DNA of 64,000 bases from a virus. Both the position numbers and the translations under genes were made by a program. The notes beneath the pieces were generated by a model. The model was not told the DNA's origin. It did no database searches and worked only from the letters and a program-made list of their open reading frames with translations. Where the stretch lies: positions 25,453-89,452 of IMG/VR virus record IMGVR_UViG_3300032323_002905; one strand, 5' to 3'. Shown here piece after piece: positions 22,750 to 48,966 of this stretch. Position 1 is the stretch's first letter. Each line of letters opens with the position of its first letter.

Positions 22750-23820
22750 TTATTTAATAATTCCTGCTATTTTTTGCATTCTTGTGAATGTGTCATTAAC
22801 TTCTACAATAGATGTTTTTGCTGTTGGCATAATACCTGTTGTTTTAGATGCTAAACTAGTTTTTAATGATTCGTTAACATGTGATTTAGAAGTTTCTTTT
22901 AAACCTTCTGATAATGTTTCGAATACTAATTTAGTTTCTTTTACTGTTGATGCTTTATCAAATGCATTTAAAACCTTTACTTTTTGTGATTCGGTTAAGT
23001 TTTTAGCTTTGAAAATTTTGTTAGTGTAAAGTAATTTTGCATTTAACAAATTAACTTCATTGATGTCAGTTCTCATAGTAGCAATAGTTGACATAGCTTC
23101 TTCTAACTCTTTTTTAAGTTTAGTTATTTCTTCTTTGTCTTTTTTGTCTTCTTTGTCACCTTTTTTCTTAGCTTCATCTAATTCGATTTCAGCTAAAATT
23201 TCATCAATTGAAATTTCTTCTTCTTCACTTTCCATTTCTTCGCCTTCTTCTTCACCTTCCATGCCTTCACCAGCTTCTAATTCACCAGCTTCAACCATGT
23301 CTTTAATTACGTCCTCAATAAATGATTTTAATTCTTCTTCAGTCATGTCTTCGATGTTGATTTCTTCTTCAGTTTCAACTTCTTCTTCACCTTCAGCTTC
23401 ATTAAGATCTTTTTTGTCTTCGTCTTCTTTAGCCTCATTCATGTCTTCATCTTTTGATTCTTCCATGTCTGCTTCTAACTCAGCTAATAATTCATCAAGA
23501 TTAAGTTCATCTAATTCTTCTTCAGCTACATTACCATGAGCTGTTGGACCTTTAGGGTCATTAATTAAACCTTCTTCTTCTTTGACTTCTTTGTAGCCCA
23601 TTAAGTTTTCTTGTTCTTTAGAATACATTTCTTCCATATCTTCCATTTCTGCTTCTTCCATATCCATTTCTTCCATTTCTGCAAGTTTAGCTGATAGCAT
23701 AGATTTTAATTGTGGAGTAAAATGTTCTTCAAGAGCAGCTTTTGCGCTTGCTATTGCTGTTTCTTTAACAACTTTAGCATCTTCGATTGCTTCTTTAAGC
23801 AAATCTCTGTTTTTACTCAT
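22750..23820 (-). CDS. Prohead core / scaffold protein (T4 gp22-like)
   Basis: Highly acidic coiled-coil protein between protease and capsid genes with many L/I/M-x-E sites. ATG at 23820 (MSKNRDLLKE) is preferred over the track's GTG at 23850, which lies inside a hairpin. Confidence 0.8.
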   Translation of the reverse strand: MSKNRDLLKEAIEDAKVVKETAIASAKAALEEHFTPQLKSMLSAKLAEMEEMDMEEAEMEDMEEMYSKEQENLMGYKEVKEEEGLINDPKGPTAHGNVAEEELDELNLDELLAELEADMEESKDEDMNEAKEDEDKKDLNEAEGEEEVETEEEINIEDMTEEELKSFIEDVIKDMVEAGELEAGEGMEGEEEGEEMESEEEEISIDEILAEIELDEAKKKGDKEDKKDKEEITKLKKELEEAMSTIATMRTDINEVNLLNAKLLYTNKIFKAKNLTESQKVKVLNAFDKASTVKETKLVFETLSEGLKETSKSHVNESLKTSLASKTTGIMPTAKTSIVEVNDTFTRMQKIAGIIK

Positions 23821-23955
23821 TTGTCCTAAAATTTTGTTTGGGAAATACACTTATTTGAAGTGTAATAGAATTGTTAATTATAGATACTGCAAATGCGATT
23901 GCGGGCAGTATATTCTAATATACATATGTCCGGATTTTCTTAAAATACACAGAAG

Positions 23956-23988
23956 TAAAAAAGAAATGCCTCTTTTTTAGAGAGGCAT
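23956..23988 (-). terminator. Rho-independent terminator after the prohead protease gene
   Basis: ATGCCTCT..AGAGGCAT stem followed by TTCTTTTTT on the minus strand. Confidence 0.7.
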
Positions 23989-24021
23989 CGGTCTAATAAT
24001 ACTATTAATAGAGGGGTTTAT

Positions 24022-24627
24022 TTAAAATAAAGGACATGACCCGTTAGCACATAAAATATCAGTAATAATTGAATTAATTTTACCATATTGATTTGTACTA
24101 GGAATATATGATTCATTTAAGTTAGTTGGTTGCATCCATGAACCTGGGTTAGAAGGTGTTGAAACAAAATCCCAACATAGTAATTCAAAGTCTTCTTGTA
24201 CTTCCATTACATTACCTCTTTGTTCTAATGAACCCATTCCTCTTGATGATACACCTACTGTGATGCCACTTTCAATTAATGCTTTTAAAATGTTGCCTGA
24301 TGGAGTAGGTAAAATTTCAATTAAACCCATTACATTATCTCCATCCCACCAGCATTTTTTAATATTATGTGAAACATTTTTTAAGTTGATAACTGAAGAA
24401 TCCGGATGATCTAATTCGCCTAATGCTCTGTTTTCACGAACAGATTCCATATAGCGATTCATTTCACGTTCCCATAATTCTTTAGCGTAATATCTACCAT
24501 TACCGTTTTTTACTTCGGCGGTAGCTAATACACCTTCTACTAATATGTTACCTCCAGGATTAGTTCCTTCAGTTAACCTAACAGCTTTAGGAGAAAATAA
24601 TTGTGTTTCAATTAATACTTGTCTCAT
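24022..24627 (-). CDS. Prohead core protease (T4 gp21-like)
   Basis: KNGNGRYY, ALGELDHP, VSH, GVSSRGMGS and DFVSTPS motifs. Confidence 0.95.
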   Translation of the reverse strand: MRQVLIETQLFSPKAVRLTEGTNPGGNILVEGVLATAEVKNGNGRYYAKELWEREMNRYMESVRENRALGELDHPDSSVINLKNVSHNIKKCWWDGDNVMGLIEILPTPSGNILKALIESGITVGVSSRGMGSLEQRGNVMEVQEDFELLCWDFVSTPSNPGSWMQPTNLNESYIPSTNQYGKINSIITDILCANGSCPLF

Positions 24628-24631
24628 TATT

Positions 24632-25450
24632 TTATTTTTTATCTAAATCACCGTATCCACTTGATTTATATTTACCTTTAGGGGTAATTGTTTCTTTTTC
24701 AGTTTTAAATCCTACTCCTTTAGTTCCAAACATAGCATTTTTAGCATAATAGTTTATGTCTTTAACCATGTTTTTAAGTACAATTTGTTTTAATTCATCA
24801 ACTGATTTGTCTTTATTTTTAGGATCTTTCATTTCAGCATAATAACCATTTAAGAAAGAGGTACCATAAACATTATCAATATTTTTCTTATCTTCATTAT
24901 CATATTGATGAGCTAAAGCATCAGCTACTTCTTTAGATGGTTTTTCAAACTCATCATAATCACCATATGTTTTTTTCTTTTTAACACCAATAACTTCTGA
25001 TAAAGTTTCTTCTTTAACTGGTCTTAACAACATTGGTTTAGTTACAAATAACTCTCTACCATCTTCTGTTTCGCCTTTAATTTGTTTAATTTTACCATTT
25101 ACTTTATCAACTAAAGTAATAGTTACTTTATCATCACCTATCATAGCTTCATCACCAACTTTAACTTTAGAACCAAATGATAAATCACTCATTGGAGTTC
25201 CTAATATGTTAGCTTCTTCATTTGTGTTTTCTCTAAATATTTCTAACCATGATGGTGATGGTTTATGATTAATAAATCCACCAATACCTTCACTTAAAAT
25301 ACTTTTTGATTTAAGTACTTTAACAGTTGTATTGTAATCAGAATATTGATTGATATATTCTGGAAATAAAGTTTTAGCTTGTTTTAAGAAATGATCTTTA
25401 TTTCCTTTTCCTTCTTTAATAAGAATGTATTGTTCTTGTAATGTTTTCAT
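24632..25450 (-). CDS. Hypothetical head-associated protein
   Basis: 272 aa in the head operon; N-terminus MKTLQEQYILIKE and several internal L/I-x-E sites. Confidence 0.7.
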   Translation of the reverse strand: MKTLQEQYILIKEGKGNKDHFLKQAKTLFPEYINQYSDYNTTVKVLKSKSILSEGIGGFINHKPSPSWLEIFRENTNEEANILGTPMSDLSFGSKVKVGDEAMIGDDKVTITLVDKVNGKIKQIKGETEDGRELFVTKPMLLRPVKEETLSEVIGVKKKKTYGDYDEFEKPSKEVADALAHQYDNEDKKNIDNVYGTSFLNGYYAEMKDPKNKDKSVDELKQIVLKNMVKDINYYAKNAMFGTKGVGFKTEKETITPKGKYKSSGYGDLDKK

Positions 25451-25463: not shown

Positions 25464-25727
25464 TTATGTGTAAAATAAAACGTTAGCACTAGCAGCTGCT
25501 AATGAAGCACTAGTTACGAATATAGGATAAGTTGCTCCTTCAAGAAATCTTAATGTAGCTGGTGAACCAGATATACATAATTCTACTCCATTTGCGTCTT
25601 TAAGACCTGTAAAAACAGCATATGATCCTGCTGTGGTTGCTGCTACTGTGAATCCAGCAAAAGAACCAGTCACTGATTGACCTTGTCTTATAGATACTAC
25701 TGTTGGGTTTGCGGGTATATTTGCCAT
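25464..25727 (-). CDS. Small virion protein, paralog 2 (possible capsid decoration)
   Basis: 87 aa, about 65% identical (57/87 by hand) to the adjacent ORF. Confidence 0.7.
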   Translation of the reverse strand: MANIPANPTVVSIRQGQSVTGSFAGFTVAATTAGSYAVFTGLKDANGVELCISGSPATLRFLEGATYPIFVTSASLAAASANVLFYT

Positions 25728-25738: not shown

Positions 25739-26002
25739 TTATGTAAAGAAAACGACGTTAGCACTTGTAGCATCTAATGAGGCACTAGTAACAAATATTG
25801 GATATACAACACCTTCTTTAAGATATAAAGCTGCTGGTGATCCTGAAACTACTAACTCTACTCCATTAGCATCTTTAAGACTTGTAAAGTGAATATAATT
25901 ATTTACAGTATTTGAACATCCAACAAAACCAGCAAATGAGCCTGTTATTGTTTGTCCTGCTTGTCTTGATACAGCGGTTGCATTAGCTGGTATATTTGCC
26001 AT
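25739..26002 (-). CDS. Small virion protein, paralog 1 (possible capsid decoration)
   Basis: 87 aa; MANIPAN...LKDANGVEL...YPIFVTSASL is shared with its neighbour. Confidence 0.7.
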   Translation of the reverse strand: MANIPANATAVSRQAGQTITGSFAGFVGCSNTVNNYIHFTSLKDANGVELVVSGSPAALYLKEGVVYPIFVTSASLDATSANVVFFT

Positions 26003-26003: not shown

Positions 26004-26537
26004 TTAGTTTTTAAATAAGCTTATTAAGTCGTTTAAATAATCGTTTGCTAAATCAGTACCATATAACACACTAAAATTAGGTTTATTTTTATAATAATCT
26101 AATGTTCTTTGTTTTGCGTTTTGTAATAATGGTAATAATTCGTTTAATTTTTGTTCTAAAGTATCAAATCCTTCTAATCTAGATTTGATAAATGTTTTTA
26201 ATTCTGGTTTATCTATGTTTAAAGAATCAATATAAGCGTCAACATCTAATTGTGCTTCGTTTACATTCTCTTTCCACATTTGTTTAACTATAATTCCTTT
26301 TGCCTGTTTATTCAGTTTTTTTTGATTAACAGGTTTGTAACCTAGTTTATAATAATAATTATTTGTTGTACCTTTAGAATTAGTATTTTTTTTATAAGCA
26401 GCATCTGTTCCTGCTTTTGTTGCTGTTTGTGGCCCTTCACCTGGACTAAAAGCTCCAGCTGATGCTCCACCTCCTGTACCTGATTCTTCAGATATTTTTT
26501 TTAATGTATCTTTAATAATACTTTTTAACTTATCCAT
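26004..26537 (-). CDS. Hypothetical head-associated protein
   Basis: 177 aa; leader MDKLKSIIKDTLKKISEE followed by a Gly-rich linker. Confidence 0.7.
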   Translation of the reverse strand: MDKLKSIIKDTLKKISEESGTGGGASAGAFSPGEGPQTATKAGTDAAYKKNTNSKGTTNNYYYKLGYKPVNQKKLNKQAKGIIVKQMWKENVNEAQLDVDAYIDSLNIDKPELKTFIKSRLEGFDTLEQKLNELLPLLQNAKQRTLDYYKNKPNFSVLYGTDLANDYLNDLISLFKN

Positions 26538-27384: not shown

Positions 27385-27419
27385 TCCTAAAGTGTTTTAT
27401 TATAAATATATAAGGATTA

Positions 27420-29297: not shown

Positions 29298-29316
29298 TTT
29301 ATTATATGTTATTAAT

Positions 29317-29324
29317 TATAAATA
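29317..29324 (-). promoter_or_regulatory. TATTTATA upstream motif (candidate late promoter), portal copy; other copies at 718, 4578, 9850, 20085, 27401, 39800, 43315, 48981 and 53920
   Basis: Exact 8-mer located 3-28 nt upstream of at least 10 start codons, always in intergenic gaps. Confidence 0.65.
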
Positions 29325-30902
29325 TTATCGTATTAACCAACTAATATCTTCGTTTCCACCCATTCCGTTTTGTATACTATATGGGTTAGGAACACTAGAA
29401 CCATAAGCACCTGTAAATCCTGTTCTGTTAACAGTCATATTACTTAATGTAGCTCTAGACATTTCTAGATTTTGTGATTTAAATCTTAATGATGTATCTC
29501 TTAAATACATTCCAATTGCAAAACTCATAATTAAGTCGTCATTGTATCCTGATTGTGCTTCAGCACGACCATTTTTCCAAATGAATACTTTCATTTCTTC
29601 TAGTAAACGTTTAGATTGAATAACAACACTTTTATCGCCTATGTACTCTCTAAATTTATTAATTACTAAAGGACGAGTTTTCATTGATGTTGTAAAACCA
29701 GGTACTAATTTTGAATTGTCCATATACTGGTCAAAATAAGCATCTGAATTATTTCCGGCTTCACTTTTAGGTGAGTAATATAAATTTTTATATCCACGTT
29801 CTTGAATTGCATCTAATGCTGACCAACCAATATTAGCATTTTCTACTACTAATAAGGCTTGATTATATTCTGTGGCTAAACCAACTAAGAAAAATCCGAA
29901 TTCTTTAGGTGGTAATTGACCTTTATATTCTGCAACTTGTGTATTTGATTCAATATGAATAACATGAGCTGCTGAGAAATCCTTGCCGTCACCTCGCGCT
30001 ACATCGGCTATAACCATATATGATTGAGTATAGTCCGCCGGTTCCCATATCCATAAGTTACGGTCAACTCCACGGCGTTCTAGCGGTTCTTTTATTGTAG
30101 TTTGAGATATAAATTCAATCCATTCTGAATAGAATACTGTATCACCTGATGTACTAAAATCGCAATCACACTCTTGTGCTGCTAATCTAGGATCACCTAA
30201 TAAATCATCTTGTCGTTTTCTCCATGCTTCATTTCTTTCAGGATGGACATACCAAGGTAATTTAATAGGCAAGAAATCATTTTGATTAGCTTCAGCCTTA
30301 ACCCATGTTTGATGAAACCAGTTACCCGTACCATAAGGAGTAGATAATACAATAGCACCACCACCCGTAGCTAAGGTTTGTTGAGCAGAAGCCCAAATTG
30401 TATCAATACCGTCAATAAAAGCAGCCTCGTCAATTAATAGCAAAGATACTGCTTCAGATCTACCAGCATCACCTGCTGCTGATACTGCTTTGATCTGAGA
30501 TCCGTTATTTAATCGTAATGTAAGTTTATTATTTTCTTCAGCATTTACTTTTAACCATGATGGTAAATTTTCATACATGAATTTTACCTTAGTTACCATG
30601 TTTTTAGCGGTTTCTTGCTTTGTAGCGATACATAACACGTTTTTATCTTTATGGAATAACATTAACCATAAAGAATAACCAGCTGATAGTGTTGAAATAC
30701 CTAATTGTCTTGATTTAAGTACTATACTGTATGGATTATCTTTCCATAAATTTAATACTTTATCCTGGAATGGATATAGATTGAATATGATTCTTCCTCT
30801 TTGAGGATGTTGAATATGACAGTATTTCTTCATAAAATGAGCCGGATCAGAGGCACATTTTACATATTCCTGTCTTATAACTTCACGTAAGTCTTGACTC
30901 AT
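29325..30902 (-). CDS. terL: Terminase large subunit (T4 gp17-like)
   Basis: KSRQLGIST, LIDEAAF and STPYG ATPase motifs; ADVARGDGKDFS and DDLIMS nuclease motifs. Confidence 0.95.
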   Translation of the reverse strand: MSQDLREVIRQEYVKCASDPAHFMKKYCHIQHPQRGRIIFNLYPFQDKVLNLWKDNPYSIVLKSRQLGISTLSAGYSLWLMLFHKDKNVLCIATKQETAKNMVTKVKFMYENLPSWLKVNAEENNKLTLRLNNGSQIKAVSAAGDAGRSEAVSLLLIDEAAFIDGIDTIWASAQQTLATGGGAIVLSTPYGTGNWFHQTWVKAEANQNDFLPIKLPWYVHPERNEAWRKRQDDLLGDPRLAAQECDCDFSTSGDTVFYSEWIEFISQTTIKEPLERRGVDRNLWIWEPADYTQSYMVIADVARGDGKDFSAAHVIHIESNTQVAEYKGQLPPKEFGFFLVGLATEYNQALLVVENANIGWSALDAIQERGYKNLYYSPKSEAGNNSDAYFDQYMDNSKLVPGFTTSMKTRPLVINKFREYIGDKSVVIQSKRLLEEMKVFIWKNGRAEAQSGYNDDLIMSFAIGMYLRDTSLRFKSQNLEMSRATLSNMTVNRTGFTGAYGSSVPNPYSIQNGMGGNEDISWLIR

Positions 30903-31288: not shown

Positions 31289-31565
31289 TGTATTTAGTTT
31301 TATATAAATCGGCTTTATGTTTTAAACCTGATAATTTAATTTTATCTTCTGCTACTTGTTTTTTATAAACAGTAGCAACTGAATCTAATTGGGTGATTTT
31401 AATTTTAGTAGAGTCAATATTTGCTTGTAATGAATCTATTTTATTATTTAAAGCTTCATTTTCTTTACCCAAACGGAAATTAGGATTAATGTTAAGAATA
31501 TTTACAATTAATAACACTAATCCTACGTATCCTAGAAACTTTATAATTTCTTTATACCACATCAA
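31215..31565 (-). CDS. Inner-membrane-anchored coiled-coil protein (i-spanin-like)
   Basis: N-terminal TM helix (FLGYVGLVLLIVNIL) plus coiled coil. Confidence 0.55.
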   Translation of the reverse strand: MMWYKEIIKFLGYVGLVLLIVNILNINPNFRLGKENEALNNKIDSLQANIDSTKIKITQLDSVATVYKKQVAEDKIKLSGLKHKADLYKTKYNEEHNRITNLSNDALVSEFTNAFD

Positions 31566-32388
31566 ATTCGAATTTATCTTTTAATGCTTCTAATTCTTTC
31601 TTTTGTGCTGTTTTTTCTTTTAATTTAGCAATGATATTTGCTTTTTCTTCACCTTCAGCATTTTTATATTCACCAGCTAATTCTTTCATTTCTTTTTCTA
31701 CTTGAATTAAACCTTTTAATACTTTATCTAATTTAGAAGTACGTTTAGTTAATTTAGTAGCTGCTTTAGCTGCTTGTTTATCAATATCTGATTCTTCTGG
31801 TGCTGAATCTTCGTCACCTGCTTTATAGTAGTCATCTGCTTCTTCTTCACCTGTCTCCATATCTTTTTCTACCGCTTTAACTGCTTTTTCTATTTTTTCT
31901 TTAGATGGTTTTGCAGTAGCTGCTTTAGGTGCTGTTGGTATTCCAGCCATTGATACTACACCTTTATCTTTTAACATACCCATTAATTCTCTGAATTTAG
32001 GATTGTTAATACTAGCTGTATCAGCTAAACCAAATTCTTTAGCTACATCAGCAACTGACATTTCACCTTTATCTAAAAGATATTCTAATGCTTTTTTAAC
32101 ATTACCTTTAGCTTTTTCGATTAATGAAGCTAATTCATCTTTCATTTCTTTATTTAAGATATAAGATACTTTAGCACGAGCCATTTCATCTAATTCTTCT
32201 TCAACAAAATCAACAGGATTTGATGGTGTCCCTAATGAAGGATTTTTTGTTTTAGTTTTAGCAGTATTAATTAAAGTCCGTTTTTGATCAGGAGTCAATG
32301 TATTTGGATTAGGTACATCAATTGTATCTTCAGATAATGTAGCGATAATTTCCTCACGTATAAAAGATTTAAATTCTTTGATTTTCAT
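31552..32388 (-). CDS. Hypothetical charged protein with leader motif (putative internal head protein)
   Basis: MKIKEFKSFIREEIIATLSE leader, LDE-MAR site, and a possible winged-HTH (MSVADVAKEFG). Confidence 0.7.
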   Translation of the reverse strand: MKIKEFKSFIREEIIATLSEDTIDVPNPNTLTPDQKRTLINTAKTKTKNPSLGTPSNPVDFVEEELDEMARAKVSYILNKEMKDELASLIEKAKGNVKKALEYLLDKGEMSVADVAKEFGLADTASINNPKFRELMGMLKDKGVVSMAGIPTAPKAATAKPSKEKIEKAVKAVEKDMETGEEEADDYYKAGDEDSAPEESDIDKQAAKAATKLTKRTSKLDKVLKGLIQVEKEMKELAGEYKNAEGEEKANIIAKLKEKTAQKKELEALKDKFEFDVV

Positions 32389-32409
32389 GTTATATTTTTC
32401 TGATAAATA

Positions 32410-32940: not shown

Positions 32941-32992
32941 ATATTATAATGTATATAAAGTCTCTAACAAGACCAAGTTGTAATTAATTTGT

Positions 32993-33244: not shown

Positions 33245-33249
33245 ATAAT

Positions 33250-33281
33250 TAAATATAACATCAAATCAGCGGGAGGTCAAA
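33250..33281 (-). promoter_or_regulatory. Bacteroidetes-type -33/-7 promoter
   Basis: TTTG-N20-TATATTTA, 5 nt before the ATG at 33244. Confidence 0.6.
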
Positions 33282-38718: not shown

Positions 38719-38720
38719 AA

Positions 38721-38993: not shown

Positions 38994-39004
38994 AATTATA
39001 AGTA

Positions 39005-39796: not shown

Positions 39797-39807
39797 GATT
39801 ATAAATA

Positions 39808-40776
39808 TTAACCAAATATAGCTTCAGGATCTATAATGATAGCTCCTTGATTAATAGCTGAGTTATCTAATATTGTTTTAGAGTCTGCTTTTGATAATTT
39901 ATCTTGAGTAATTTGAGTATATTTAATATCACCATTTTCAGTGACATTAACTATATAACCACCATCACCTGGTTTTTCTTTAATTTTAGTAGATATGATT
40001 TTTTTAATCATGTTAGCTGACGCGTCATCTACTGAGAAATCACTAGATAAATTTAATTTGTTTATAAGTTCATCTACTTTATCAAATATATTTTTAATTA
40101 ATTGATATCTAGATGATAATTCTCTTAATTCTGAACTTGCGCTAAAATCTCTAAGACTTTCAAATGCGTCAATGATATCAGATCTAGTAAAACTTAATGG
40201 ATTAGATTTTTTAGATTTAGCACTATCTTTTTCTAAAGATGATACTAATGAATTTAATCCAAATAATGTATTTAATAAACTTAAATTATTAGCGTCTGAA
40301 CTAAATCTACCTAAAGTAATTTTTTTAGCATTGTATGCTTTAACTTCTACTCCAATACCATCAGCGTATAAATCAGGACTACCACCTCCACGACCATCAA
40401 CTACATTATAATTTTTGCTTAATAACCAATACATGGCTATTTCACCATTACCTGATCCTTTAGTACCTACTTCAGAGTCTTCTTGTCCTTTTTTTGGTGG
40501 TGATATTGGATATAATTCTTTAAAAATTTTACCATCTTCACCACTTAAATTAACATTAACCCCTAGTCTATAATTTCCTTCAGGAAGAGGAAAAGAACCT
40601 AATTTTTTTTCTATTATTTTATTGTAAATTTCAGAAGAACCAGCTTCATTTAAATTTACGTTTAATTCTTTTAATATTTTTTCCATTAATAAAATATCCT
40701 GTTCATTTTTCATGTCAGGATATCCTTTAGGAAATTTATAAGAATATTGTTTTAAAAATTTATCGATTGGATCCAT
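39808..40776 (-). CDS. Putative PD-(D/E)XK nuclease-fold protein with N-terminal extension
   Basis: GNGEIA...PDLYADGIGVEVKA motif; N-terminal segment ends in LNE. Confidence 0.6.
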   Translation of the reverse strand: MDPIDKFLKQYSYKFPKGYPDMKNEQDILLMEKILKELNVNLNEAGSSEIYNKIIEKKLGSFPLPEGNYRLGVNVNLSGEDGKIFKELYPISPPKKGQEDSEVGTKGSGNGEIAMYWLLSKNYNVVDGRGGGSPDLYADGIGVEVKAYNAKKITLGRFSSDANNLSLLNTLFGLNSLVSSLEKDSAKSKKSNPLSFTRSDIIDAFESLRDFSASSELRELSSRYQLIKNIFDKVDELINKLNLSSDFSVDDASANMIKKIISTKIKEKPGDGGYIVNVTENGDIKYTQITQDKLSKADSKTILDNSAINQGAIIIDPEAIFG

Positions 40777-40778
40777 AA

Positions 40779-41246
40779 TTATACAGTTGGTTCTTCAGCA
40801 GGAGCTTCTGTAGCTGCTTCATCACCTGAATCTTTAAATGATGCGTTTGCATCTTTTGAAGCGCCATATGATAATAATCTAGCTATAGATTCTGTTGCTC
40901 TACCTTCGTCCTTTATATCATTTAACCAATATTTTTTACCTTCTGATTTACAAATCCAAGTAACATCATCATATAGTAAGTAAAAGAATTGATTATTTGC
41001 TAATAATATTTTAAATGTTGTTGGTTTAGGTGCTATCCATTGTATTTCACTAACAAAATCTTTATATTGAACTGTTAGTAATTGAATAATAGCATCACGT
41101 AATGATGGGAATTTAGCTAAAATAGGGAACTTATCCAAATCTAAAGAAATATCTGTTTTAGGAACATCTAAATCTATTTTAGATTGGGCTTTGTAAACTT
41201 GTTTTACAATAGCACGTATTCTATTTTTAAAATCTTCTTTAACCAT
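40779..41246 (-). CDS. Hypothetical protein
   Basis: 155 aa with PKPTTFKI and an acidic tail. Confidence 0.75.
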   Translation of the reverse strand: MVKEDFKNRIRAIVKQVYKAQSKIDLDVPKTDISLDLDKFPILAKFPSLRDAIIQLLTVQYKDFVSEIQWIAPKPTTFKILLANNQFFYLLYDDVTWICKSEGKKYWLNDIKDEGRATESIARLLSYGASKDANASFKDSGDEAATEAPAEEPTV

Positions 41247-42412
41247 TATAGTCCTCTTTCTTCTTTTAAACGAGCTGCTTGTTTAGCTGTTGGACCTTTA
41301 CCTCCACCTTTAGCTTTATATTGTGATACAGCACCTGCAATTGCAGTTGCTACTTTTTCAGATTTGCCTTGTTTTTTTAGTTTATTAACTAATTTTTCAA
41401 ATGTTTCATCTAATTTAGCTGTTTCTTTTTTCCAAAATCCTTTAGGTAAACCTTCATCCATTGGTTCTTCCATTGCCGGGACAATATCTTCATAGTCCTG
41501 CATTGACAATGTTTCTTTACTTTTGTTAATTTCAATAGCTTTTTCAGCTACATCATGTAAATCAACATCTGCTTTAGCGTCTTCACGAGCAAATTCTAAC
41601 ATACGGATAAATAAAGGTACATCCATAGTAACTGTATCTACCGCGTCTTTAGCTTCTGCTTCTTCTTCGTTTACTTCTTCTTTAACTAAACCAGCTTTAA
41701 GAACCTGCATAATAGCAAAATAAGCATCATCAACACCGTAACCGTAATCTTGAGCTACTTCTCTAATAAAGTCTTCTACTTTTTGTACTAATTCAGGATT
41801 AATATTTGCTTTTGATGCAAAAAATTTAGATTCTTCTTGAATCATAGCATCTAATGCTGGTTGTTTTTCTTCAAATTCTAAATAATGTTTAGCTTTATCC
41901 ATATAATCAGCAGCTAGATGAATTTTTTCTTGCCACCAATCAGGAAAATCAACTTCTTGATCCATTTGATCATACTTATCTAGCATTTTATATAAACCAG
42001 CAGCGTATTGAGCTATACGATAAACAGATGCTTTTAACATATCTGGTTCATCATCTTGATGACCTAAATCAATATCTTCATTTGCTGATTTTTTGATAAT
42101 GGCTTTTTGTAAAGCATCAGGTAAAGATTTTTGTTTACCTTTTAAAGCAGGATCATTATCAAATTCTTTTGAAAATTTCTCATCTACTGGACTCATAAGA
42201 GTCTTCTTAATCATTTCACGTACTTTATCTTTATTCATGTTTTCTGCTGTTTTTTTAGCTATATTAGTAGCACGTCCATACATTACTTTTTCAGCATCTT
42301 TACCATAGCGTTTAACTAATGATGATTTTTCTGATTTAAGTTGTTTAACAACTTCCTCACGTTTTTTTAATTCCGCCGGAGTTAATGTTTTTTCAGTGAT
42401 ACTTTGTTTCAT
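41246..42412 (-). CDS. Modular charged protein (putative processed internal head polyprotein)
   Basis: 388 aa; alternating basic and acidic modules delimited by x-x-E sites. Confidence 0.75.
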   Translation of the reverse strand: MKQSITEKTLTPAELKKREEVVKQLKSEKSSLVKRYGKDAEKVMYGRATNIAKKTAENMNKDKVREMIKKTLMSPVDEKFSKEFDNDPALKGKQKSLPDALQKAIIKKSANEDIDLGHQDDEPDMLKASVYRIAQYAAGLYKMLDKYDQMDQEVDFPDWWQEKIHLAADYMDKAKHYLEFEEKQPALDAMIQEESKFFASKANINPELVQKVEDFIREVAQDYGYGVDDAYFAIMQVLKAGLVKEEVNEEEAEAKDAVDTVTMDVPLFIRMLEFAREDAKADVDLHDVAEKAIEINKSKETLSMQDYEDIVPAMEEPMDEGLPKGFWKKETAKLDETFEKLVNKLKKQGKSEKVATAIAGAVSQYKAKGGGKGPTAKQAARLKEERGL

Positions 42413-42413
42413 A

Positions 42414-43295
42414 TTAGATATTATCTATAAAGTTTGATATATATTCTTTTACATCTTCTTTTTCAAATCCTTCTGTCATCCATTCTGTTCCTAAGATACG
42501 TAATGAATCATGTAACATTTTTAAAAGTCTTATATTAGCTAATCCTTCCATTCTATCAATAGCTTCAGGACTTATTTGTTCATTAATTGGAGCTGTATCT
42601 AAGATATGGGCTTTAGTAAAATAAGTAATTGTATTAGCAATTTGAGTGATTAATTTTTCATCACCTAATGCTTTTGCTTCAGCATATGCTGCTTGTAAGT
42701 TAGATTGAATACCTGATATTTCAGCTGATTCACCAGCCATCATATCTGATGCAGGCGCGTCAACTACTTCAGTATCATCTACTGTTATGTCTTCAACTTC
42801 TTTATCTTTTTTAGCTTCAGCTAATGGATCATAAGCACTGTCTGCGTCTGTTATATTTACATCTTTGTCTGAATCTTCATTTAATTCAGCTAAAATCATT
42901 TCTTTGATTTTTGCTTTTAAATCAGATTTAGTCATTTTACCTTCACTAGTTTTTTTAGCGTCATCTTTCATATCTTTTTCTAAAGCATCGATATGTGCCG
43001 CGTCATCTTTTTCAGCGTCTTTGTAATATGATTCTTTATTTTCTTTAAGTGGGCCATACCATTGATCTTCAAACTCATCAAGTTTAAATCCATTTGTAAA
43101 AGCAAGTTCTACCCAATCTTCATAATCATCATCTACACTTAAGTAACTTTTTACCTCTTCTTTAGAATATGGAGATAGTCCTTTAAATTTTTTATCTTTA
43201 AATAATGACTTAAATAATGACTCTGTTTGATTTTCTTTAATTATACCCGCTAATTTTTGCATGCGAGCTAATTGTTCATTTAATGTTGGTTTCAT
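42414..43295 (-). CDS. Putative internal head protein with RMQKLAGII leader
   Basis: 293 aa, acidic; leader shared with ORF 35426..35896; internal MTKSDLKAKIKE motif. Confidence 0.75.
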   Translation of the reverse strand: MKPTLNEQLARMQKLAGIIKENQTESLFKSLFKDKKFKGLSPYSKEEVKSYLSVDDDYEDWVELAFTNGFKLDEFEDQWYGPLKENKESYYKDAEKDDAAHIDALEKDMKDDAKKTSEGKMTKSDLKAKIKEMILAELNEDSDKDVNITDADSAYDPLAEAKKDKEVEDITVDDTEVVDAPASDMMAGESAEISGIQSNLQAAYAEAKALGDEKLITQIANTITYFTKAHILDTAPINEQISPEAIDRMEGLANIRLLKMLHDSLRILGTEWMTEGFEKEDVKEYISNFIDNI

Positions 43296-43326
43296 GTTTT
43301 ATATAGTTATATATTATAAATATATG

Positions 43327-43599
43327 TTATTTGTTAAACTTAACTTTTGCTTTTTCTGTGTTAGGTACAAATTGTTTACCTTTTTTATCTCCCTCGATTT
43401 TTTTGCGAGTTGTTGCGGCACGTTCAGCTTTAGTTAAGCGTTTCGCTTTAGCTAATGGTAAGCAACGTTGTGTTGCTTTACCTTTAGGCATTGTACCACA
43501 GTCACCTGCGATGTTACCCTGTGTATCTATACGGACCCATTTTTCTTTTTTAAACCAGTCACGTAGTGATTCTTGTACTAAGCGTTTTAAGTTATCCAT
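43327..43599 (-). CDS. Basic protein with WFKxEKW..CG..CLP motif (DUF5872-like)
   Basis: SLRDWFKKEKWVRI...CG...RCLP..KA; family name recalled from memory, not verified. Confidence 0.65.
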   Translation of the reverse strand: MDNLKRLVQESLRDWFKKEKWVRIDTQGNIAGDCGTMPKGKATQRCLPLAKAKRLTKAERAATTRKKIEGDKKGKQFVPNTEKAKVKFNK

Positions 43600-43949
43600 T
43601 ATTTTTTCTTGCCTGACATTAATCCTTTACATACCTTAACAGCTCGACCTGACAAATAAGCTGAAGACTTTTCGCCAGCTGCCATTCTACGTTGACGATA
43701 TGCTTCGCCTTTAGGGCAAAGTTTTTCAATTAATAATTCATTTAATATATTATCAATGCGTTCTTTTAATCGAGGTGTGTTAAATATTTTATTAATAATA
43801 ACAAAATCAGTCATTGGATCTAATTCATCCACTGTTTTGCCATTAGCATAAAGTTTTAAGAAATATTTTACTGTAGGTGTATTGTAAGTATCAATTTTAT
43901 CTTTGATAATTTCTAATTTTCTTTCAGCTTCTTTTTGAATTGCATCCAT
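43599..43949 (-). CDS. Hypothetical protein with C-terminal LCPKG..SAYLSG..VKVC module
   Basis: 116 aa; coupled by TAATG to the next gene. Confidence 0.7.
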   Translation of the reverse strand: MDAIQKEAERKLEIIKDKIDTYNTPTVKYFLKLYANGKTVDELDPMTDFVIINKIFNTPRLKERIDNILNELLIEKLCPKGEAYRQRRMAAGEKSSAYLSGRAVKVCKGLMSGKKK

Positions 43950-43950
43950 G

Positions 43951-44154
43951 TTATTTACTTAATAAGTCATTAATTCTAATATGAAATTGTGACATACTAG
44001 TATCTAGTAAGTCTGGGTTATCCTTTAATATTTTATATAGTTTTTCACTAATATCAAATTTAATTATAGGATTTAATATATCTTCTTCCATCATTTCATT
44101 ATTTTCAACTAAACGACGGTTATTAAAATATTTGTATACATTGAAATTGCTCAT
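43951..44154 (-). CDS. Small hypothetical protein
   Basis: 67 aa; fills the gap exactly with TAATG coupling. Confidence 0.65.
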   Translation of the reverse strand: MSNFNVYKYFNNRRLVENNEMMEEDILNPIIKFDISEKLYKILKDNPDLLDTSMSQFHIRINDLLSK

Positions 44155-44759
44155 TATTTTTTATTTTTTAAATAATTACTTAGTAGTGTACCTATAGCAC
44201 CTACCTTCTGTCTTATAAATATCCATTCTTCTAGTGTTAATGTATGATTTTCATTAACATAATCAATAACTAACACACCTATAAACTGATCTTGTAAATC
44301 ATGTATAGCAAGAGCATAAAATGATTTAGTACCACATGATTTATCCACAGGGAATAAATTTTGAGCTTTATCAGCATCATAATGAGGTAAATTAATTTCA
44401 CCTTCTCTATATAATGTAGAAAATGCTTTACTAAATAATGATGTAGGAATATTTTGGTATACTTCTTTAACAGATGCTACATCAACTCCTACACGTTCAT
44501 ATAATATTGAAAATTTTTGTAGTGATTTACCCGTAGGATATAAATGTCCACCATTATGGAATTGTGATATCCATATGCGATCACAATCTAATTGATCAAA
44601 TAAACTATCAACTTGATGATCAATTAAAGCGTTATGTTCAATAGCTTCAGCTAATGGATCATGCTTTTTTCTTTCTAATTTAGTTTTAACCCATGTCATT
44701 ACTACAGGTCCAATTACTGCTGTTATAAACGCGACTATTACTGCGGTTAATATATCCAT
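44154..44759 (-). CDS. Single-TM protein with GAF-like soluble domain (possible T4 T-type holin)
   Basis: N-terminal TM helix, DRIWISQFHNGG and FIGVLVIDY. The holin role is inferred from architecture only. Confidence 0.55.
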   Translation of the reverse strand: MDILTAVIVAFITAVIGPVVMTWVKTKLERKKHDPLAEAIEHNALIDHQVDSLFDQLDCDRIWISQFHNGGHLYPTGKSLQKFSILYERVGVDVASVKEVYQNIPTSLFSKAFSTLYREGEINLPHYDADKAQNLFPVDKSCGTKSFYALAIHDLQDQFIGVLVIDYVNENHTLTLEEWIFIRQKVGAIGTLLSNYLKNKK

Positions 44760-45328
44760 TACTTTTTTAAACTTTGTAGATATTCTATTGTTTGTTCTTT
44801 ACTTTTTAATAATTGTGCTTTATCTGAACCATTCCATGATTCTACATCTCCTGCCTCTGTAATATAAGATTCCATTTTGGTATCTATTTTTTCATCAATC
44901 CAAATATTGAAATCTTTAATTATACTATCAATATCAGAATTTAATATATTTTTTTCATATTCAACCCATAATCCTTTTGCTTTTATCGCGCCTTCAAATT
45001 CTATCTGGCAGTCAAAGCATCTGTTATATTGAATATAAAATTGTTTATCATAACGATGTTTCATTACTTTAGAGCATTCAGGGCAAAATAATGGTAAATG
45101 GATTTGAGCTTTCGCTTTATCCAATTTTGTAACATTTTGTTTTATACCATTTTTAATGGTCCATTTACGACCATCTTCTTCCCATACATCTCCTTCATCA
45201 TGAAACTCTTGTTGTTTGGTGTAACCAATACTAGTACTAGTTTTTTCACCATATTTACCTTGAACTAAATTACGAAGACGTTGTACATCTTTTTCTTTAA
45301 ATTCTTTTTTTAAAACTGATTCTGACAT
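44759..45328 (-). CDS. Zinc-finger-containing hypothetical protein
   Basis: CPEC...CFDC motif. Confidence 0.75.
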   Translation of the reverse strand: MSESVLKKEFKEKDVQRLRNLVQGKYGEKTSTSIGYTKQQEFHDEGDVWEEDGRKWTIKNGIKQNVTKLDKAKAQIHLPLFCPECSKVMKHRYDKQFYIQYNRCFDCQIEFEGAIKAKGLWVEYEKNILNSDIDSIIKDFNIWIDEKIDTKMESYITEAGDVESWNGSDKAQLLKSKEQTIEYLQSLKK

Positions 45329-45331
45329 TTA

Positions 45332-45976
45332 TTATTTTGTTAGATTTTTTATTTGTTCTCTAATGACTTCTTTTAATTCTTTTTTAGTCATTTTGATTTT
45401 CATATATTCAGCTTTAGGATCTTTAGGTAATTCTTTAATTTTACCTTGTTTAACTTGTTGCATAAAATATATTTTTGCTTCTTGATCTAATTTATTTATT
45501 GATTCATCAACTGACTCTTTATCAACTACTGAGTAGTCAATTTTAGCACTTTTCATTACCACATCAATAATTTTTTTAGTTAAGTCTTTAGCTGGATTTC
45601 CTGACTTAGGGAAAACAATAGTATCGTCTTTAACTTTATATTTTAATAATGTAGGTCTAGAAGTAAGTGACTTAACAAAATCATCAATTGCTGTTTTAGT
45701 TTTAACAGGAAAAGGAAAACCTTGATCTTTTTCCATTTTCTTGCGTTTAGCAGGAATAACAGGACCAAAGTGATCTTCTAATGCTTTTTGAATTGATTGT
45801 TTATTACGCATGTTAGAAATATACATTCCGTAGTTATCTAATGTCTCTAAAGCTTTAACTGTATCTTCTACAGAAACGCCTTTAGGAGTAACTACAACAT
45901 CGTAATTTACTTGTTCACGATTTGAAGGTGAAACTTCTGCTCCCTCTTCTTCTCTTAATTTGTATTTATAAGCCAT
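45332..45976 (-). CDS. Hypothetical protein
   Basis: 214 aa; C-terminal MTKKELKEVIRE motif. Confidence 0.7.
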   Translation of the reverse strand: MAYKYKLREEEGAEVSPSNREQVNYDVVVTPKGVSVEDTVKALETLDNYGMYISNMRNKQSIQKALEDHFGPVIPAKRKKMEKDQGFPFPVKTKTAIDDFVKSLTSRPTLLKYKVKDDTIVFPKSGNPAKDLTKKIIDVVMKSAKIDYSVVDKESVDESINKLDQEAKIYFMQQVKQGKIKELPKDPKAEYMKIKMTKKELKEVIREQIKNLTK

Positions 45977-46496
45977 ATTGTTTTAATTCGTCTATTACTT
46001 GATCAGTTGATTTAAATAAAATACCTATTCCTCCTTTTGATTTCCATTGTTCAATATTATCTTCTCTATCGTCAATCAAAATTTTATTTTTACCTGAATA
46101 GTTTTGTTTAGCTGTCGCGTTAGCTAATACTAATTTAGTTCCAGGTATATTATTTTTAACCCACAAACGTTTACCTAAACGTGATTCGTTTTGGCGTGAT
46201 GGAGCTGATAGTAAAGTTGGGTTATGTGGTTTAATGTAGTCCCATAGTTTTTGTCCTTCAGGCATCCATTCCATACCTACCCAAAATCTTACTCCTATTT
46301 GTCTGTCAATTAAATCCCAAAATTTTTCTTTACCATACTTACTTTCGTAAGCACGAGGATCCATATTACCAAAGTATCTAAAACGAGCATCAAAATCAGT
46401 TAATACACCATCCATATCACAGTAGATTTTGTATAGTGATTGAGTTGATTCTTCTTCTTCTTTTAATTGTTTATATAAGTCTGTTAATTTATACAT
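45966..46496 (-). CDS. HAD-family 5'(3')-deoxyribonucleotidase-like protein with N-terminal leader
   Basis: IYCDMDGVLTDF, LLSAP, GKRLW, ILIDD and W..KGGIGI motifs. Confidence 0.85.
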   Translation of the reverse strand: MYKLTDLYKQLKEEEESTQSLYKIYCDMDGVLTDFDARFRYFGNMDPRAYESKYGKEKFWDLIDRQIGVRFWVGMEWMPEGQKLWDYIKPHNPTLLSAPSRQNESRLGKRLWVKNNIPGTKLVLANATAKQNYSGKNKILIDDREDNIEQWKSKGGIGILFKSTDQVIDELKQYGL

Positions 46497-47646
46497 TTTT
46501 TATTTTTACGTCTGAATTTTGAAGAAATTGTCCTTTAGGAGTAGGAGCAGGAGTTGAAGATACTAATGAACCTTCTTTGATACTGTCTTCCCAATTTCTA
46601 AACATCATATTACCTTTTTCGTAAGCTTCTCTTTCAATTTCAGGTAAATCTCCGTCTTCGTTTGTGTTTGTTGTACTGATATTATTTAATCTATTATCTA
46701 AATTTTGTTCATGATGTATCATTTCATGAGAAAATGAACGTAAAACATCTTTAGGATGTCTATTCATAGTAAATAAAGTAATTGATTTTTCTTCTGGGTT
46801 GTAAAATGCTGTTTTGCCGAATACGTTTTCAGCATTTGCTTTATCATTGTTAATGAATTTAACAACAGGTAATGGTTTAATATTCATACCTTGATTAACC
46901 ATATATTTAGTTAATTCAGGAATATATTTTTTATAGTCATTAGTTTTGTTTAAAGACTCATTTAAAGTAGGGTTATTATCATGTCCGCATTTATGACAGA
47001 TATATAAATCTTTACCACCATCTGCTATTTTCCATTCCCAACCACAATTGTCACAAATAACTTCTGTGTTTGTTACTAGTTCTTGAACAATAGTAGATAA
47101 AGTATTAAATACTTCTGTTTTTTCTTTTACTTTTTCAGGGATAAAAGATAAAAATGCTTCTTGTCCTTTTTTTAAGGCTTGACGAGCGTCAGTTCCGCTT
47201 GTATCTAATTGAGTAACTATAGGAGCTAACTCAACATTTTCATACTTACCTATACCTTTTGTTCTTGAAGCCATATCTATAAAATCATCATCTTTACCTT
47301 CTCTAGCTCCAATAACCCATATTACATTCTCGTCTTGATGATTTTTAATATAATCATAGATAGCTGTAATTGGTGAGTTAGTTGGTTCTACTTTTACTTT
47401 TAAAGGTAAGTATTTTTTATAGATATCCCAAACTAAAAGTGATTCAGCTTGAGTAATTCCATCTCTTGTTCCTGAGCCAACATAAATAATAAATTCATCT
47501 ATTTGTGGATATTTTTCTAATGCTGTTTCAACAACTTCAAAGTGACCCTTGTGAGGCGGTTTAAAACCACCCCCATACAAAGCTACAGTTTTAGTTTGTT
47601 CTTGTTCTAAAATAGAATCAGCTAAAAATTTACCTAATGGATTCAT
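46489..47646 (-). CDS. HxGH nucleotidyltransferase (cytidylyltransferase-like) fused to a Zn ribbon and HExxH metallopeptidase-like domain
   Basis: GGGFKPPHKGH and SGTDAR; CDNCG..CHKCG; SHEMIHHEQ..EREA. Confidence 0.8.
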   Translation of the reverse strand: MNPLGKFLADSILEQEQTKTVALYGGGFKPPHKGHFEVVETALEKYPQIDEFIIYVGSGTRDGITQAESLLVWDIYKKYLPLKVKVEPTNSPITAIYDYIKNHQDENVIWVIGAREGKDDDFIDMASRTKGIGKYENVELAPIVTQLDTSGTDARQALKKGQEAFLSFIPEKVKEKTEVFNTLSTIVQELVTNTEVICDNCGWEWKIADGGKDLYICHKCGHDNNPTLNESLNKTNDYKKYIPELTKYMVNQGMNIKPLPVVKFINNDKANAENVFGKTAFYNPEEKSITLFTMNRHPKDVLRSFSHEMIHHEQNLDNRLNNISTTNTNEDGDLPEIEREAYEKGNMMFRNWEDSIKEGSLVSSTPAPTPKGQFLQNSDVKIKNV

Positions 47647-48209
47647 TAACTAAGTTTCATTTTTTTAATATACGCACTATTACGAGATCCTCTCATTCCT
47701 AAATCATAATTAGCTTCTTTTTTTAATTCTTCAGCTTTAGCCATATCTAATGTAGCGTCATGTAACTCACCACCATTATCAGCGATAATGTAAACTACAT
47801 TAGTTTGATTTTCATTAAGTTTTAACTTTTGAATTAATTCTTTAGCTTTAACTTTTTTCTCATCAATATCTTTTTTAGAAGTTCTAAATTCTTCCATTGA
47901 TGCTTTTAATTCATCTAATTGTGTATCACGAGCTTTTAACGCCTCAGTAGCAATTCTACTTGCATCTGATTTGTTTTTGTACATACCCATAATGTTTTCA
48001 TATGTTAAACCGTTTTTAATTCTTTCAGCTAGTGAAAAAGGATCGGCCTCAAACATTATTTCTTCTTTTGTTGATTTAGTACCTGGTTTAGATACTACAA
48101 AGAATTTACCTACTTCATCAACTACATCGTAGTTTTTAGTAATGGCTTCTTTTACTTCCATTGTTTCTTCTTCCAAATTTTCTCTTAAAAGGTCAATTAA
48201 TTTTTTCAT
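47646..48209 (-). CDS. Hypothetical protein with leader motif
   Basis: MKKLIDLLRE leader and coiled coil. Confidence 0.7.
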   Translation of the reverse strand: MKKLIDLLRENLEEETMEVKEAITKNYDVVDEVGKFFVVSKPGTKSTKEEIMFEADPFSLAERIKNGLTYENIMGMYKNKSDASRIATEALKARDTQLDELKASMEEFRTSKKDIDEKKVKAKELIQKLKLNENQTNVVYIIADNGGELHDATLDMAKAEELKKEANYDLGMRGSRNSAYIKKMKLS

Positions 48210-48210
48210 G

Positions 48211-48966
48211 TTATATGAATTGGTTTATTTTTTGTTTTGCTTGATCTAGTGTATCAAAACTACGATCTACAGAAAGTAAATCTTTTATATCTTGGTTTAT
48301 TTGTTCTTTTTCTCTAGCTGATTTAGCTATTTCTTCTGGTGTTTTAGGTTTACCTACTGATTTAGTAGTATCAAAGAAACGTTTTTTAATTTCTTCAGGA
48401 TTATAATCAGTTTCAGCATCTTTAGGATCGTTATTAACTAATATAAAATTATCACCAAATGCTTCTTTATATGTGTCTATATTTTTAGTATAATCACGCC
48501 ATGTTCTTACTACAATAGATGGTAACAAGTTTCTATCACGTTGTAAATTGCGTTCTAATGAAGTAATAGGCGAAACATATAATGCTAACATCAATGTATT
48601 GTATCCTAGTGCTTCAAGTTCCGCTTTTTTCTTAAGTAATGGTTTACTTGCACCTCCTGTACCGTCAACTACCACATCTTTTAGATCTTTAGTTAACTCA
48701 TCATATTTTTCTCTAGTAATTTTTTGCGCTTGTCCCATTAATTTAGCAGCCTGAGATAATTCTTCAGGTCCGAAATCTTTTTGAGACATACCTAAACCTG
48801 ATTTCTTTAATAATTCTTCATAAGAATCATCAATATTAATGACATTAAATGAAGGAGGTATTAATTGTTTAGATATATATGACTTACCAGAACCAGCAGG
48901 ACCAGCTAAAAATATAGCTTTAGGCGCAGATGATGCTTCTGTTAATAATTGAACTAGAGAAATCAT
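48211..48966 (-). CDS. Zeta-toxin-like P-loop kinase with N-terminal leader
   Basis: KAIFLAGPAGSGKS, INIDD, VVDGTG, LGY and SLERNLQRDR motifs. Confidence 0.8.
   Translation of the reverse strand: MISLVQLLTEASSAPKAIFLAGPAGSGKSYISKQLIPPSFNVINIDDSYEELLKKSGLGMSQKDFGPEELSQAAKLMGQAQKITREKYDELTKDLKDVVVDGTGGASKPLLKKKAELEALGYNTLMLALYVSPITSLERNLQRDRNLLPSIVVRTWRDYTKNIDTYKEAFGDNFILVNNDPKDAETDYNPEEIKKRFFDTTKSVGKPKTPEEIAKSAREKEQINQDIKDLLSVDRSFDTLDQAKQKINQFI

Follow-up and report, generated by a model that had tools for sequence, protein, structure and literature searches.

Candidate capsid-targeting leader peptides on unrelated proteins of an immuto-like myovirus

Introduction

In bacteriophage T4 an N-terminal capsid targeting sequence, reportedly described by Mullaney and Black in 1996, is said to be carried by IPI, IPII, IPIII, Alt and gp24 and to be removed by the head protease gp21. 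To our knowledge, this principle is so far known only in the T-even and giant phages. Here we describe comparable N-terminal peptides, referred to as leaders, on a series of unrelated proteins encoded by a 64,000-nucleotide stretch of viral DNA (IMG/VR record IMGVR_UViG_3300032323_002905, positions 25,453 to 89,452). This stretch, called the window, forms the final 64 kb of a contig of 89 kb (G+C ~30%), and all positions are given in window numbering unless stated otherwise. The leaders are probably capsid-targeting propeptides of the T4 kind that are removed by the head protease, a reading to which we assign a probability of roughly 0.7.

The propeptides of the T4 internal proteins comprise 10-19 residues, of which the first 10 of IPIII are enough for packaging; residues 4 and 7 of IPIII serve targeting and residues 8 and 10 processing, and Asp at position 10 stops processing but not targeting (PMC9026906). 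In the T4 record, IPII and IPIII (MKTYQEFIAE), gp24 (MAKINELLRE) and Alt (MELITELFDE) all read M-x-x-hydrophobic-x-x-hydrophobic-hydrophobic-x-E. In the giant phages phiKZ, 201phi2-1 and SPN3US, inner-body and ejection proteins are processed by a gp21-related protease (PMC9026906, PMC5694885).

Results

Leader Classes in the Window

All genes of the window lie on the minus strand and are named here by their lower coordinate. Three leader classes, A, B and C, follow one common rule, hydrophobic-x-x-hydrophobic-hydrophobic-x-Glu at a fixed distance from the start. Class A leaders (10 residues, M-x-x-L-x-x-L-L-x-E) are found in 36773, a superoxide dismutase (SOD), in 37422, 39005, 43327 and 47646, and in the kinase 48211. 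Class B leaders comprise 12 residues, reading MKKSELKQLIKE in 38072, 38443 and 38721 and MKIKEFKSFIRE in 31552, and class C leaders comprise 21 residues ending in RMQKLAGII(T/K)E, present in 35426 and 42414 and once more beyond the window, at genome positions 12117-12473. Class A-like leaders with Asp at position 10 occur in 26004 and 46489. Every leader quoted in the first-pass annotation was found at its gene, in each case on the minus strand. We consider ~13 genes strong tag candidates (31552, 35426, 36773, 37422, 38072, 38443, 38721, 39005, 42414, 43327, 46489, 47646 and 48211) and four weaker ones (24632, 26004, 39808 and 45966). The features are as follows, a slash marking the predicted cut.

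24632-25450, minus strand: head-module protein with the 13-residue leader MKTLQEQYILIKE; orthologs keep MKKTLQDQYLLIKE/GKG before variable bodies
26004-26537, minus strand: small head-module protein, MDKLKSIIKD (Asp-10), then ISE at residue 18; orthologs read MDKLKDIIKAKLKE/MSATGQGG; noted beside it, a family widespread in relatives, 72-88 residues long with 12/16-residue leaders
31552-32388, minus strand: class B protein of 278 amino acids, leader MKIKEFKSFIRE/E, the same in an ortholog (contig L037); promoter-like motif 32401-32409
35426-35896, minus strand: class C acidic protein of 156 amino acids, assigned by its leader MKPILNEQLARMQKLAGIITE/N
36773-37429, minus strand: Fe/Mn SOD, class A leader MINLIQLLTE/A at 37400-37429; Pfam SOD domain from residue 15, metal-ligand motifs intact
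37422-38072, minus strand: very basic class A protein (isoelectric point, pI, 10), MIKLVDILKE/I; its orthologs are single proteins with a leader, fusions in front of SOD, or polyprotein modules behind KLKE/
38072-38440, minus strand: small class B protein, leader MKKSELKQLIKE/E, kept in orthologs
38443-38718, minus strand: small class B protein, assigned by its leader, with two sites, LIRE at 12 and ILKE at 20
38721-38993, minus strand: small class B protein, assigned by its leader, with two sites; likely start ATG 38993
39005-39796, minus strand: Cys-rich class A protein, MNKLKQLISE/T, phrog_7595 match; leaders of orthologs MNRIQRLIRE, MERIKQLIRE or MKLIDILKE; promoter-like motif 39799-39807
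42414-43295, minus strand: very acidic two-module class C protein with a putative internal fossil leader, KMTKSDLKAKIKE, at residue 121; promoter-like motif 43314-43322
43327-43599, minus strand: basic class A protein of 90 amino acids, assigned by leader and pI, MDNLKRLVQE/S
45332-45976, minus strand: protein with the leader-like C-terminus KMTKKELKEVIREQIKNLTK, which may be either a fossil or a C-terminal tag; second-best internal match of the class B leader hidden Markov model (HMM)
45966-46496, minus strand: NT5C-like nucleotidase with the loose leader MYKLTDLYKQLKE, a weaker candidate
46489-47646, minus strand: cytidylyltransferase/NMNAT-like protein (Pfam CTP_transf_like), 14-16 residue leader MNPLGKFLADSILEQE; orthologs read MNQLTKFLVDGILNE/ or MSEVTESLLQELLDE/
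47646-48209, minus strand: class A protein of 187 amino acids, MKKLIDLLRE/N (ortholog MKKLLDLLNE), comparable to T4 gp24 MAKINELLRE
48211-48966, minus strand: Zeta-toxin/AAA-type P-loop kinase (Pfam Zeta_toxin, E 4e-9), class A leader MISLVQLLTE/A; promoter-like motif 48980-48988

The strict motif, [LIVM]xx[LIVM][LIVM]xE ending within the first 22 residues, was scanned for in 91 proteins of the contig and is N-terminal in 16 of them, 14 times the internal rate (Poisson 8e-16). Its end positions cluster at residues 10 (nine proteins), 12 (four) and 21 (three). Tagged genes make up 12 of 28 in 31552-48966 compared with 2 of 62 in the rest of the contig (Fisher 7e-6), and an equal frequency of the motif on replication and early proteins was not observed, the primase, glycosyltransferases and replication genes being untagged. 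From residue 26 onward the tagged proteins show no mutual similarity at E<1e-3. Pfam and PHROGs searches revealed nothing useful on the function of 37422, 38072-38721, 35426, 42414, 47646 and 31552, and an ESM Atlas search for cargo function returned unnamed viral clusters only.

Head Genes

The window derives from a myovirus of the immuto ("Far-T4") type, which belongs distantly to the T4 superfamily and is equipped with the T4 head-maturation machinery. This placement is based on the gp23-like capsid protein, an S77 protease, an acidic scaffold, a gp20-like portal and a T4-type terminase. Three head genes are of direct concern.

21048-22724, minus strand: gp23-like major capsid protein, N-terminus MSTIQSLLE, predicted maturation site Q-L-V-M-E59/Q (homology and alignment)
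22750-23820, minus strand: acidic scaffold in gp22 position, starting MSKNRDLLKE from the ATG at 23820 (synteny protease-scaffold-capsid)
24022-24627, minus strand: gp21-type prohead serine protease, N-terminus MRQVLIE, second site RLTE at residue 20 (Pfam Peptidase_S77, PF03420, E 4e-32)

Scaffold, protease, portal and large terminase are encoded upstream of the capsid gene; the order protease-scaffold-capsid is as in T4, and the gene order from primase to terminase is common to this contig and the Flavobacterium phage vB_FspM_immuto. The capsid protein is 56% identical to that of immuto, 48% to Microcystis phage Mel-JY01, 35% to Rhodothermus phage RM378 and ~28% to T4-type gp23. No near-identical phage record was found. 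Since the 42414 product is identical to a protein (P0121) on a contig of 152,863 bp, the full genome probably comprises ~153 kb and the 89-kb contig is probably incomplete.

When 50 capsid-protein N-termini were aligned with T4 gp23, an invariant (L/I)(V/I)xE column appeared at the T4 LTE/A (Glu65) site. Orthologs of the protease carry 16-17 N-terminal residues ending in hydrophobic-hydrophobic-x-E/SK, and T4 gp21 has LIE-9 (PMC9026906), paralleling the protease N-termini of the type found here. The N-termini of capsid protein, scaffold and protease are related to the leaders. Two resemblances to the scaffold proposed in the first-pass annotation had to be abandoned: the Glu of the N-terminal RDLLKE is not conserved in relatives, and class B leaders share only a generic amphipathic character with the internal scaffold segment MTEEELKSFIEDVIKD. 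The class B leader HMM gives scaffolds 3-4 bits, which is not the top score, its best internal matches being fossil leaders at module joints; class B as a specific scaffold mimic was rejected.

Class C Leaders and the Scaffold Tail

The third proposed resemblance, between class C and the scaffold C-terminus, held. The scaffold ends in TRMQKIAGIIK (docking-type peptide RMQKIAGIIK at 22753-22782), and the class C leader reads as a near-exact copy of the conserved C-terminal scaffold peptide, RMQKLAGII, followed by x-Glu. A search of IMG/VR with a degenerate DNA pattern for MQKLAGII found it in at least 120 contigs. In 95 of the 123 matches listed the peptide is located at the very C-terminus of proteins that are 300-480 amino acids long and end in RMQKLAGII(K), 65 of which are BLAST homologs of the scaffold studied here at loci that also encode capsid-protein and protease homologs. 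In 23 of the 123 matches listed it is N-terminal, at positions 8-14, and in each of these x-Glu comes directly after the peptide (AGIITE, SE, NE, KE, VE), which is absent after the scaffold tails. Among 50,697 phage records, scaffold tails of the RMQKLAGII type were present only in immuto (4 records) and, in divergent form, in Mel-JY01. No paper mentioning 'MQKLAGI' was found in the literature, and neither a scaffold nor internal proteins or leaders come up in the Far-T4 paper.

In a set of 5.8 billion proteins, 39 carry an almost invariant 23-residue class C leader in front of at least 10 different bodies of 166-512 amino acids. Such invariance might be expected if the repeats were recombination cassettes that shuffle modules at the DNA level, with the peptide as a by-product, and the DNA of the class B trio and of the class C trio is indeed nearly identical within each trio, including the rare codons CGC and GCG, so that each trio looks to be made up of recent duplicates or recombination partners. 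Nevertheless, we regard this explanation as very improbable: class A leaders differ from each other by synonymous codons and lie behind unrelated upstream DNA, the scaffold tail and the class C leaders are likewise written in different codons, and the leader motif persists over SOD lineages of 28-54% identity that differ in leader class. Recombination anchoring may add to a tag function without explaining it. The data support the view that the leaders are portable peptide modules maintained by selection at the peptide level.

Conservation in Relatives and Selection for Glutamate

The leaders were further compared in a pooled set of ~1,400 distinct N-termini of open reading frames (ORFs) from this contig, immuto and 138 IMG/VR loci. 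Following hydrophobic-x-x-hydrophobic-hydrophobic-x in registers 9, 10 and 12, Glu and Asp occur 138:7, in contrast to 844:788 inside proteins. This ratio bears out the proposed gp21-type Glu site at the leader ends, and because the internal ratio is ~1:1, it favours a Glu-specific protease over a generic acidic helix cap. When N-termini were picked solely for Glu at residue 10 and hydrophobic residues at 7 and 8, 76% of them also had a hydrophobic residue at position 4, compared to 42% in the background, and the consensus of the N-termini so picked is M-I-K-L-x-D-(L/I)-L-K-E.

Orthologs of the kinase, 37422, 39005, 47646, 31552 and 38072 retain the leader at body identities of 31-56%, those of the kinase spanning this whole range, whereas in nine untagged families of this region the leader is missing from all orthologs identified as well. 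Tag presence thus appears to be a property of the protein family. Within the region 33283-36757, three untagged genes of metabolic type lie amid tagged ones, encoding a metallophosphoesterase (33283), an FAD/NAD(P)-binding oxidoreductase (33980) and a protein of the 'ferredoxin' family phrog_3704 (36140); they too are untagged in all orthologs.

Leaders of immuto include MIKLIDLLTE (24569), MISIYNILKE (103366), MKKSELVKLIKE (102294), MKKSQLRQIIKE (113188) and the MENFDLKKFLVE family, and two immuto proteins are of class C (25061, 111675). In Mel-JY01 the tag system is much weaker with few leaders; its scaffold tail is VERMKKLAGIVK and its protease starts MSKQLLID. A fourth leader class, M-(E/D)-N-F-D-L-(K/R)-K-F-L-x-E/NKL, is common in relatives (immuto 1803, 103806, 117631, 118632 and many IMG/VR loci); this contig has one degenerate copy without Glu, MSNFNVYKYFNN, at 43951-44154.

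Superoxide Dismutases and Polyproteins

Comparison with cellular homologs, suggested by the first-pass annotation, was possible for the SOD by using its 120 best database homologs. Named cellular SODs (Balneicella, Bacteroidales, Blattabacterium; 198-204 amino acids) begin directly at the fold without extension. In ~90 longer, phage-type SODs, the fold is preceded by an extension of 15-35 residues consisting of a leader (MIKLINLLTE, MKLMSILTE, MIKLKNILKE, MKFIQDYDFLFE and others) and a linker of variable length. SOD folds behind such an extension are more basic, with a median pI of 8.0 compared to 5.9 (Mann-Whitney 9e-9, ignoring relatedness), as would be expected for a protein stored with DNA. 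In the phage studied here, the median pI is 7.95 for tagged bodies and 5.7 for the rest; class A includes 43327 (pI 10.4) and the SOD (pI 9) besides the very basic 37422, and the class C bodies are very acidic (pI 4.4-5.2).

These charges bear on the question whether tagged products stay in the head at all. The leaders might be no more than signals for processing or activation, or for holding the proteins on the scaffold while they take part in assembly, and the products might leave together with scaffold fragments, being neither retained nor injected. The class C bodies are acidic like the scaffold, the T4 scaffold itself leaves the head, and evidence for retention was not found in this analysis. 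The strongly basic class A bodies and the basic shift of tagged SODs, which is as expected for DNA-associated proteins like the T4 internal proteins, argue against such an exit, and we consider it unlikely.

Four related IMG/VR contigs (L138-L141) contain modules corresponding to the tagged genes within single ORFs of 1014-1602 amino acids, headed by the NMNAT-like module. The 1602-amino-acid polyprotein of L140 has the order NMNAT-like, SOD, 37422-like, kinase, nucleotidase, and its joints IIRE/, KLKE/, NIKE/ (before the kinase) and FIKE/ (before the nucleotidase) are located a few residues before the module starts, corresponding to the positions of the leader-end Glu in the present phage. 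In two further proteins (P0001 and P0003) a 37422-like module is fused in front of SOD with a single leader, the second leader being absent; in the window, 37422 and the SOD gene are adjacent and overlapping, and each has a leader of its own. The simplest reading would be that every polypeptide carries a single address and that the joints are protease sites. The presumed fossil leaders, at residue 121 in 42414 and C-terminal in 45332, are consistent with past fusions.

The C-terminal 40% of 46489-47646 contains a CxxC...CxxC zinc ribbon and a HEMIH (HExxH) motif behind the nucleotidyltransferase domain. This block recurs separately in related polyproteins and may represent a metallopeptidase-like module.

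A Promoter-Like Element and Other Features of the Window

On the gene strand there are 14 copies of the motif ATATTTATAA(T), on the other strand none. Copies lie 10-28 nt ahead of virion genes, among them those for sheath, tube and portal, and the tagged genes 48211, 42414, 39005 and 31552 are likewise preceded by the motif, as is the class C gene located beyond the window. The same element is found in immuto in front of virion genes and tagged genes, and it is probably the late promoter of the phage.

48980-48988, 43314-43322, 39799-39807, 32401-32409, 29316-29324, 27400-27408 and others, gene strand: ATATTTATAA(T) sites, assigned by motif

Among the neighbouring genes, 25464-25727 and 25739-26002 in the head module encode tandem 87-amino-acid paralogs that are 63% identical past residue 25 and both leaderless; homologs were not found in the related loci compared. 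Two very long fibre-like proteins (1018-4563, 1181 amino acids; 10442-16972, 2176 amino acids) have common repeated segments of 50-80% identity. A SegE-like GIY-YIG homing endonuclease (50729-51187) is encoded between the primase and tail genes.

Discussion

Weighing the Evidence for Capsid Targeting

Several observations speak against interpreting the leaders as capsid-targeting propeptides. The bare motif occurs at the same registers in 5 of 66 proteins of the unrelated Flavobacterium siphovirus 11b, and terminase orthologs in related contigs match it at a conserved N-terminus. As the bare motif is nonspecific, part of the roughly 20 tagged proteins counted in the first-pass annotation may be false. 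The near-identical DNA within the class B and class C trios implies recent duplication, which raises the tag counts. Departures from the rule are Asp-10 in 26004 and 46489, Gln in 39808 and the loose motif of the nucleotidase, one ortholog of which lacks the leader, and the pI test on SODs was made without phylogenetic correction. Furthermore, no virion proteome, cleavage or expression data for this phage or its relatives were found in the literature; this includes virion proteomes of immuto, Mel-JY01 and RM378, and no paper on Mel-JY01 was found at all. Finally, ~15 different packaged enzymes would be unusual for a genome of ~153 kb.

The matches in unrelated proteins raise the question whether the leaders are generic N-terminal amphipathic helices that have nothing to do with the capsid, arising from codon bias in AT-rich start regions or serving oligomerisation or membrane contact. 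Besides phage 11b and the terminases, the frequencies in T4 (8 of 158) and immuto (14 of 229) point in this direction, amounting to only 5-6%. In contrast, phage FCL-2 has 0 matches in 78 proteins. A generic helix would also leave a number of features without explanation, namely the 20:1 preference for Glu over Asp only in the N-terminal register, the sharp registers at residues 10, 12 and 21, near-identical leaders in different codons on unrelated proteins, the identity of class C with the scaffold tail, the match between leader ends and polyprotein joints, and the lack of the extension in cellular homologs. We therefore hold it to be distinctly unlikely. As a classifier, the simple motif was discarded as insufficient in view of its matches in control phages.

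The terminase N-terminus reads MEERSLKQVIRE/EYIKC in three related contigs (L039 7941-9542, L046 2942-4546 and L068 12009-13583); the terminase of the window (29325-30902) has Gln instead of Glu at the end of the leader motif. Either the motif gives a false positive in these terminases, or the resemblance is one for which we have no explanation.

A Possible Route into the Head

The tagged genes appear to share with the virion genes the promoter-like element that drives their transcription. If the leaders are capsid-targeting propeptides, the amphipathic N-terminal helix would draw the protein into the assembling scaffold core; in class C this helix reproduces the RMQKLAGII peptide with which the scaffold itself ends. 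The gp21-type protease, active only within the prohead, would then cut after the Glu of hydrophobic-hydrophobic-x-Glu and thereby free the mature protein inside the head. In relatives, a single leader would serve a long polyprotein with hydrophobic-x-Glu joints, while in this phage the genes would be separate, each with its own leader. What the sequences show is the leader pattern, its conservation and portability, the strong preference for Glu and the equivalence of leader ends and polyprotein joints; targeting to the head, cleavage and, at a later stage, ejection into host cells are inferred. It is plausible that the mature proteins stay in the filled head and are injected.

A broader proposal, which we put forward tentatively and with more doubt than confidence, is that a large aquatic clade of the T4 superfamily uses two addressing peptides, a T4-like leader of 9-12 residues and the copy of the scaffold peptide RMQKLAGII, to load a changeable set of enzymes. 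These would be injected as a toolkit for the first minutes of infection (SOD, NMNAT-like protein, zeta-type kinase, nucleotidase and basic DNA-binding proteins), and the genes would shift between leader-per-gene and leader-per-polyprotein organisation by fusion and fission at protease sites. Possible roles of such a toolkit are NAD+ restoration and defence against oxidative stress.

Should capsid targeting apply here, the T4 principle would extend to an abundant and almost unstudied clade, whose scaffold tail is found in the at least 120 IMG/VR contigs and whose only cultured members are immuto and Mel-JY01. Ordinary enzymes like SOD would then be virion cargo instead of post-infection 'auxiliary metabolic genes'. 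Class C as a copy of the scaffold tail would give a concrete idea of what a targeting peptide binds, cargo docking being still open for T4, and the interchange of tagged genes and polyproteins might provide a rule for spotting packaged proteins in metagenomic phages. The use of such leaders as a protein-delivery tool, raised in the first-pass annotation, would not be new, as the T4 capsid targeting sequence has been so used since 1993-96 (PMC9026906).

Comparison with Known Systems

Several known systems share single traits with the one described here. Polyvalent proteins of phages and conjugative elements were reportedly described by Iyer et al. in 2017; similarly, proteins of 1000-1600 amino acids in the related contigs combine NMNAT-like, SOD, kinase and nucleotidase modules, but in the phage studied here these are separate genes with leaders, and the joints obey the cutting rule of the head protease. 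Encapsulin cargo-loading peptides are short and portable and send unrelated enzymes into a shell of the HK97 fold. The leaders resemble them as short portable address peptides for unrelated enzymes, with the difference that the tag is N-terminal and apparently removed. Encapsulin cargo loading itself was rejected, since portal, terminase, scaffold and protease are all encoded, indicating a true phage head.

The scaffolds of P22 (gp8) and of herpesviruses (pre-VP22a) possess C-terminal coat-binding tails. The present scaffold likewise has a short conserved peptide at its extreme C-terminus, RMQKLAGII(K), but here the peptide is also found N-terminally on other proteins, followed by a protease site. 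With the inner-body proteins of giant phages, the tagged proteins would share many propeptides cut at Glu, redundant sites and packaged enzymes. Those proteins are cut at S/A/G-x-E, in contrast to the hydrophobic P3 and P4 of the leaders, and the genome of the present phage is, at ~150 kb, not that of a jumbo phage. Processing of the phiKZ type by an S80 protease was rejected, as the S80 match (18.7 bits) is below the cut-off of 23.4 while S77 matches strongly, and P3 is hydrophobic.

The closest counterpart is the T4 capsid targeting sequence. Both systems comprise a protease of the gp21 family and propeptides, here putative, of 10-19 residues that end in hydrophobic-x-Glu and precede unrelated mature parts, and at the sequence level positions 4, 7, 8 and 10 are conserved in both. 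The T4 system is experimentally established; the candidate system described here is predicted from sequence and differs from it in the number of tagged genes, 13-17 on the 89-kb contig compared to ~5-7 in T4, in the coexistence of several leader classes and in a recognisable enzyme cargo (SOD, P-loop kinase, NMNAT-like protein and nucleotidase). The copy of the scaffold tail in class C is without counterpart in T4, where the end of gp22 is different.

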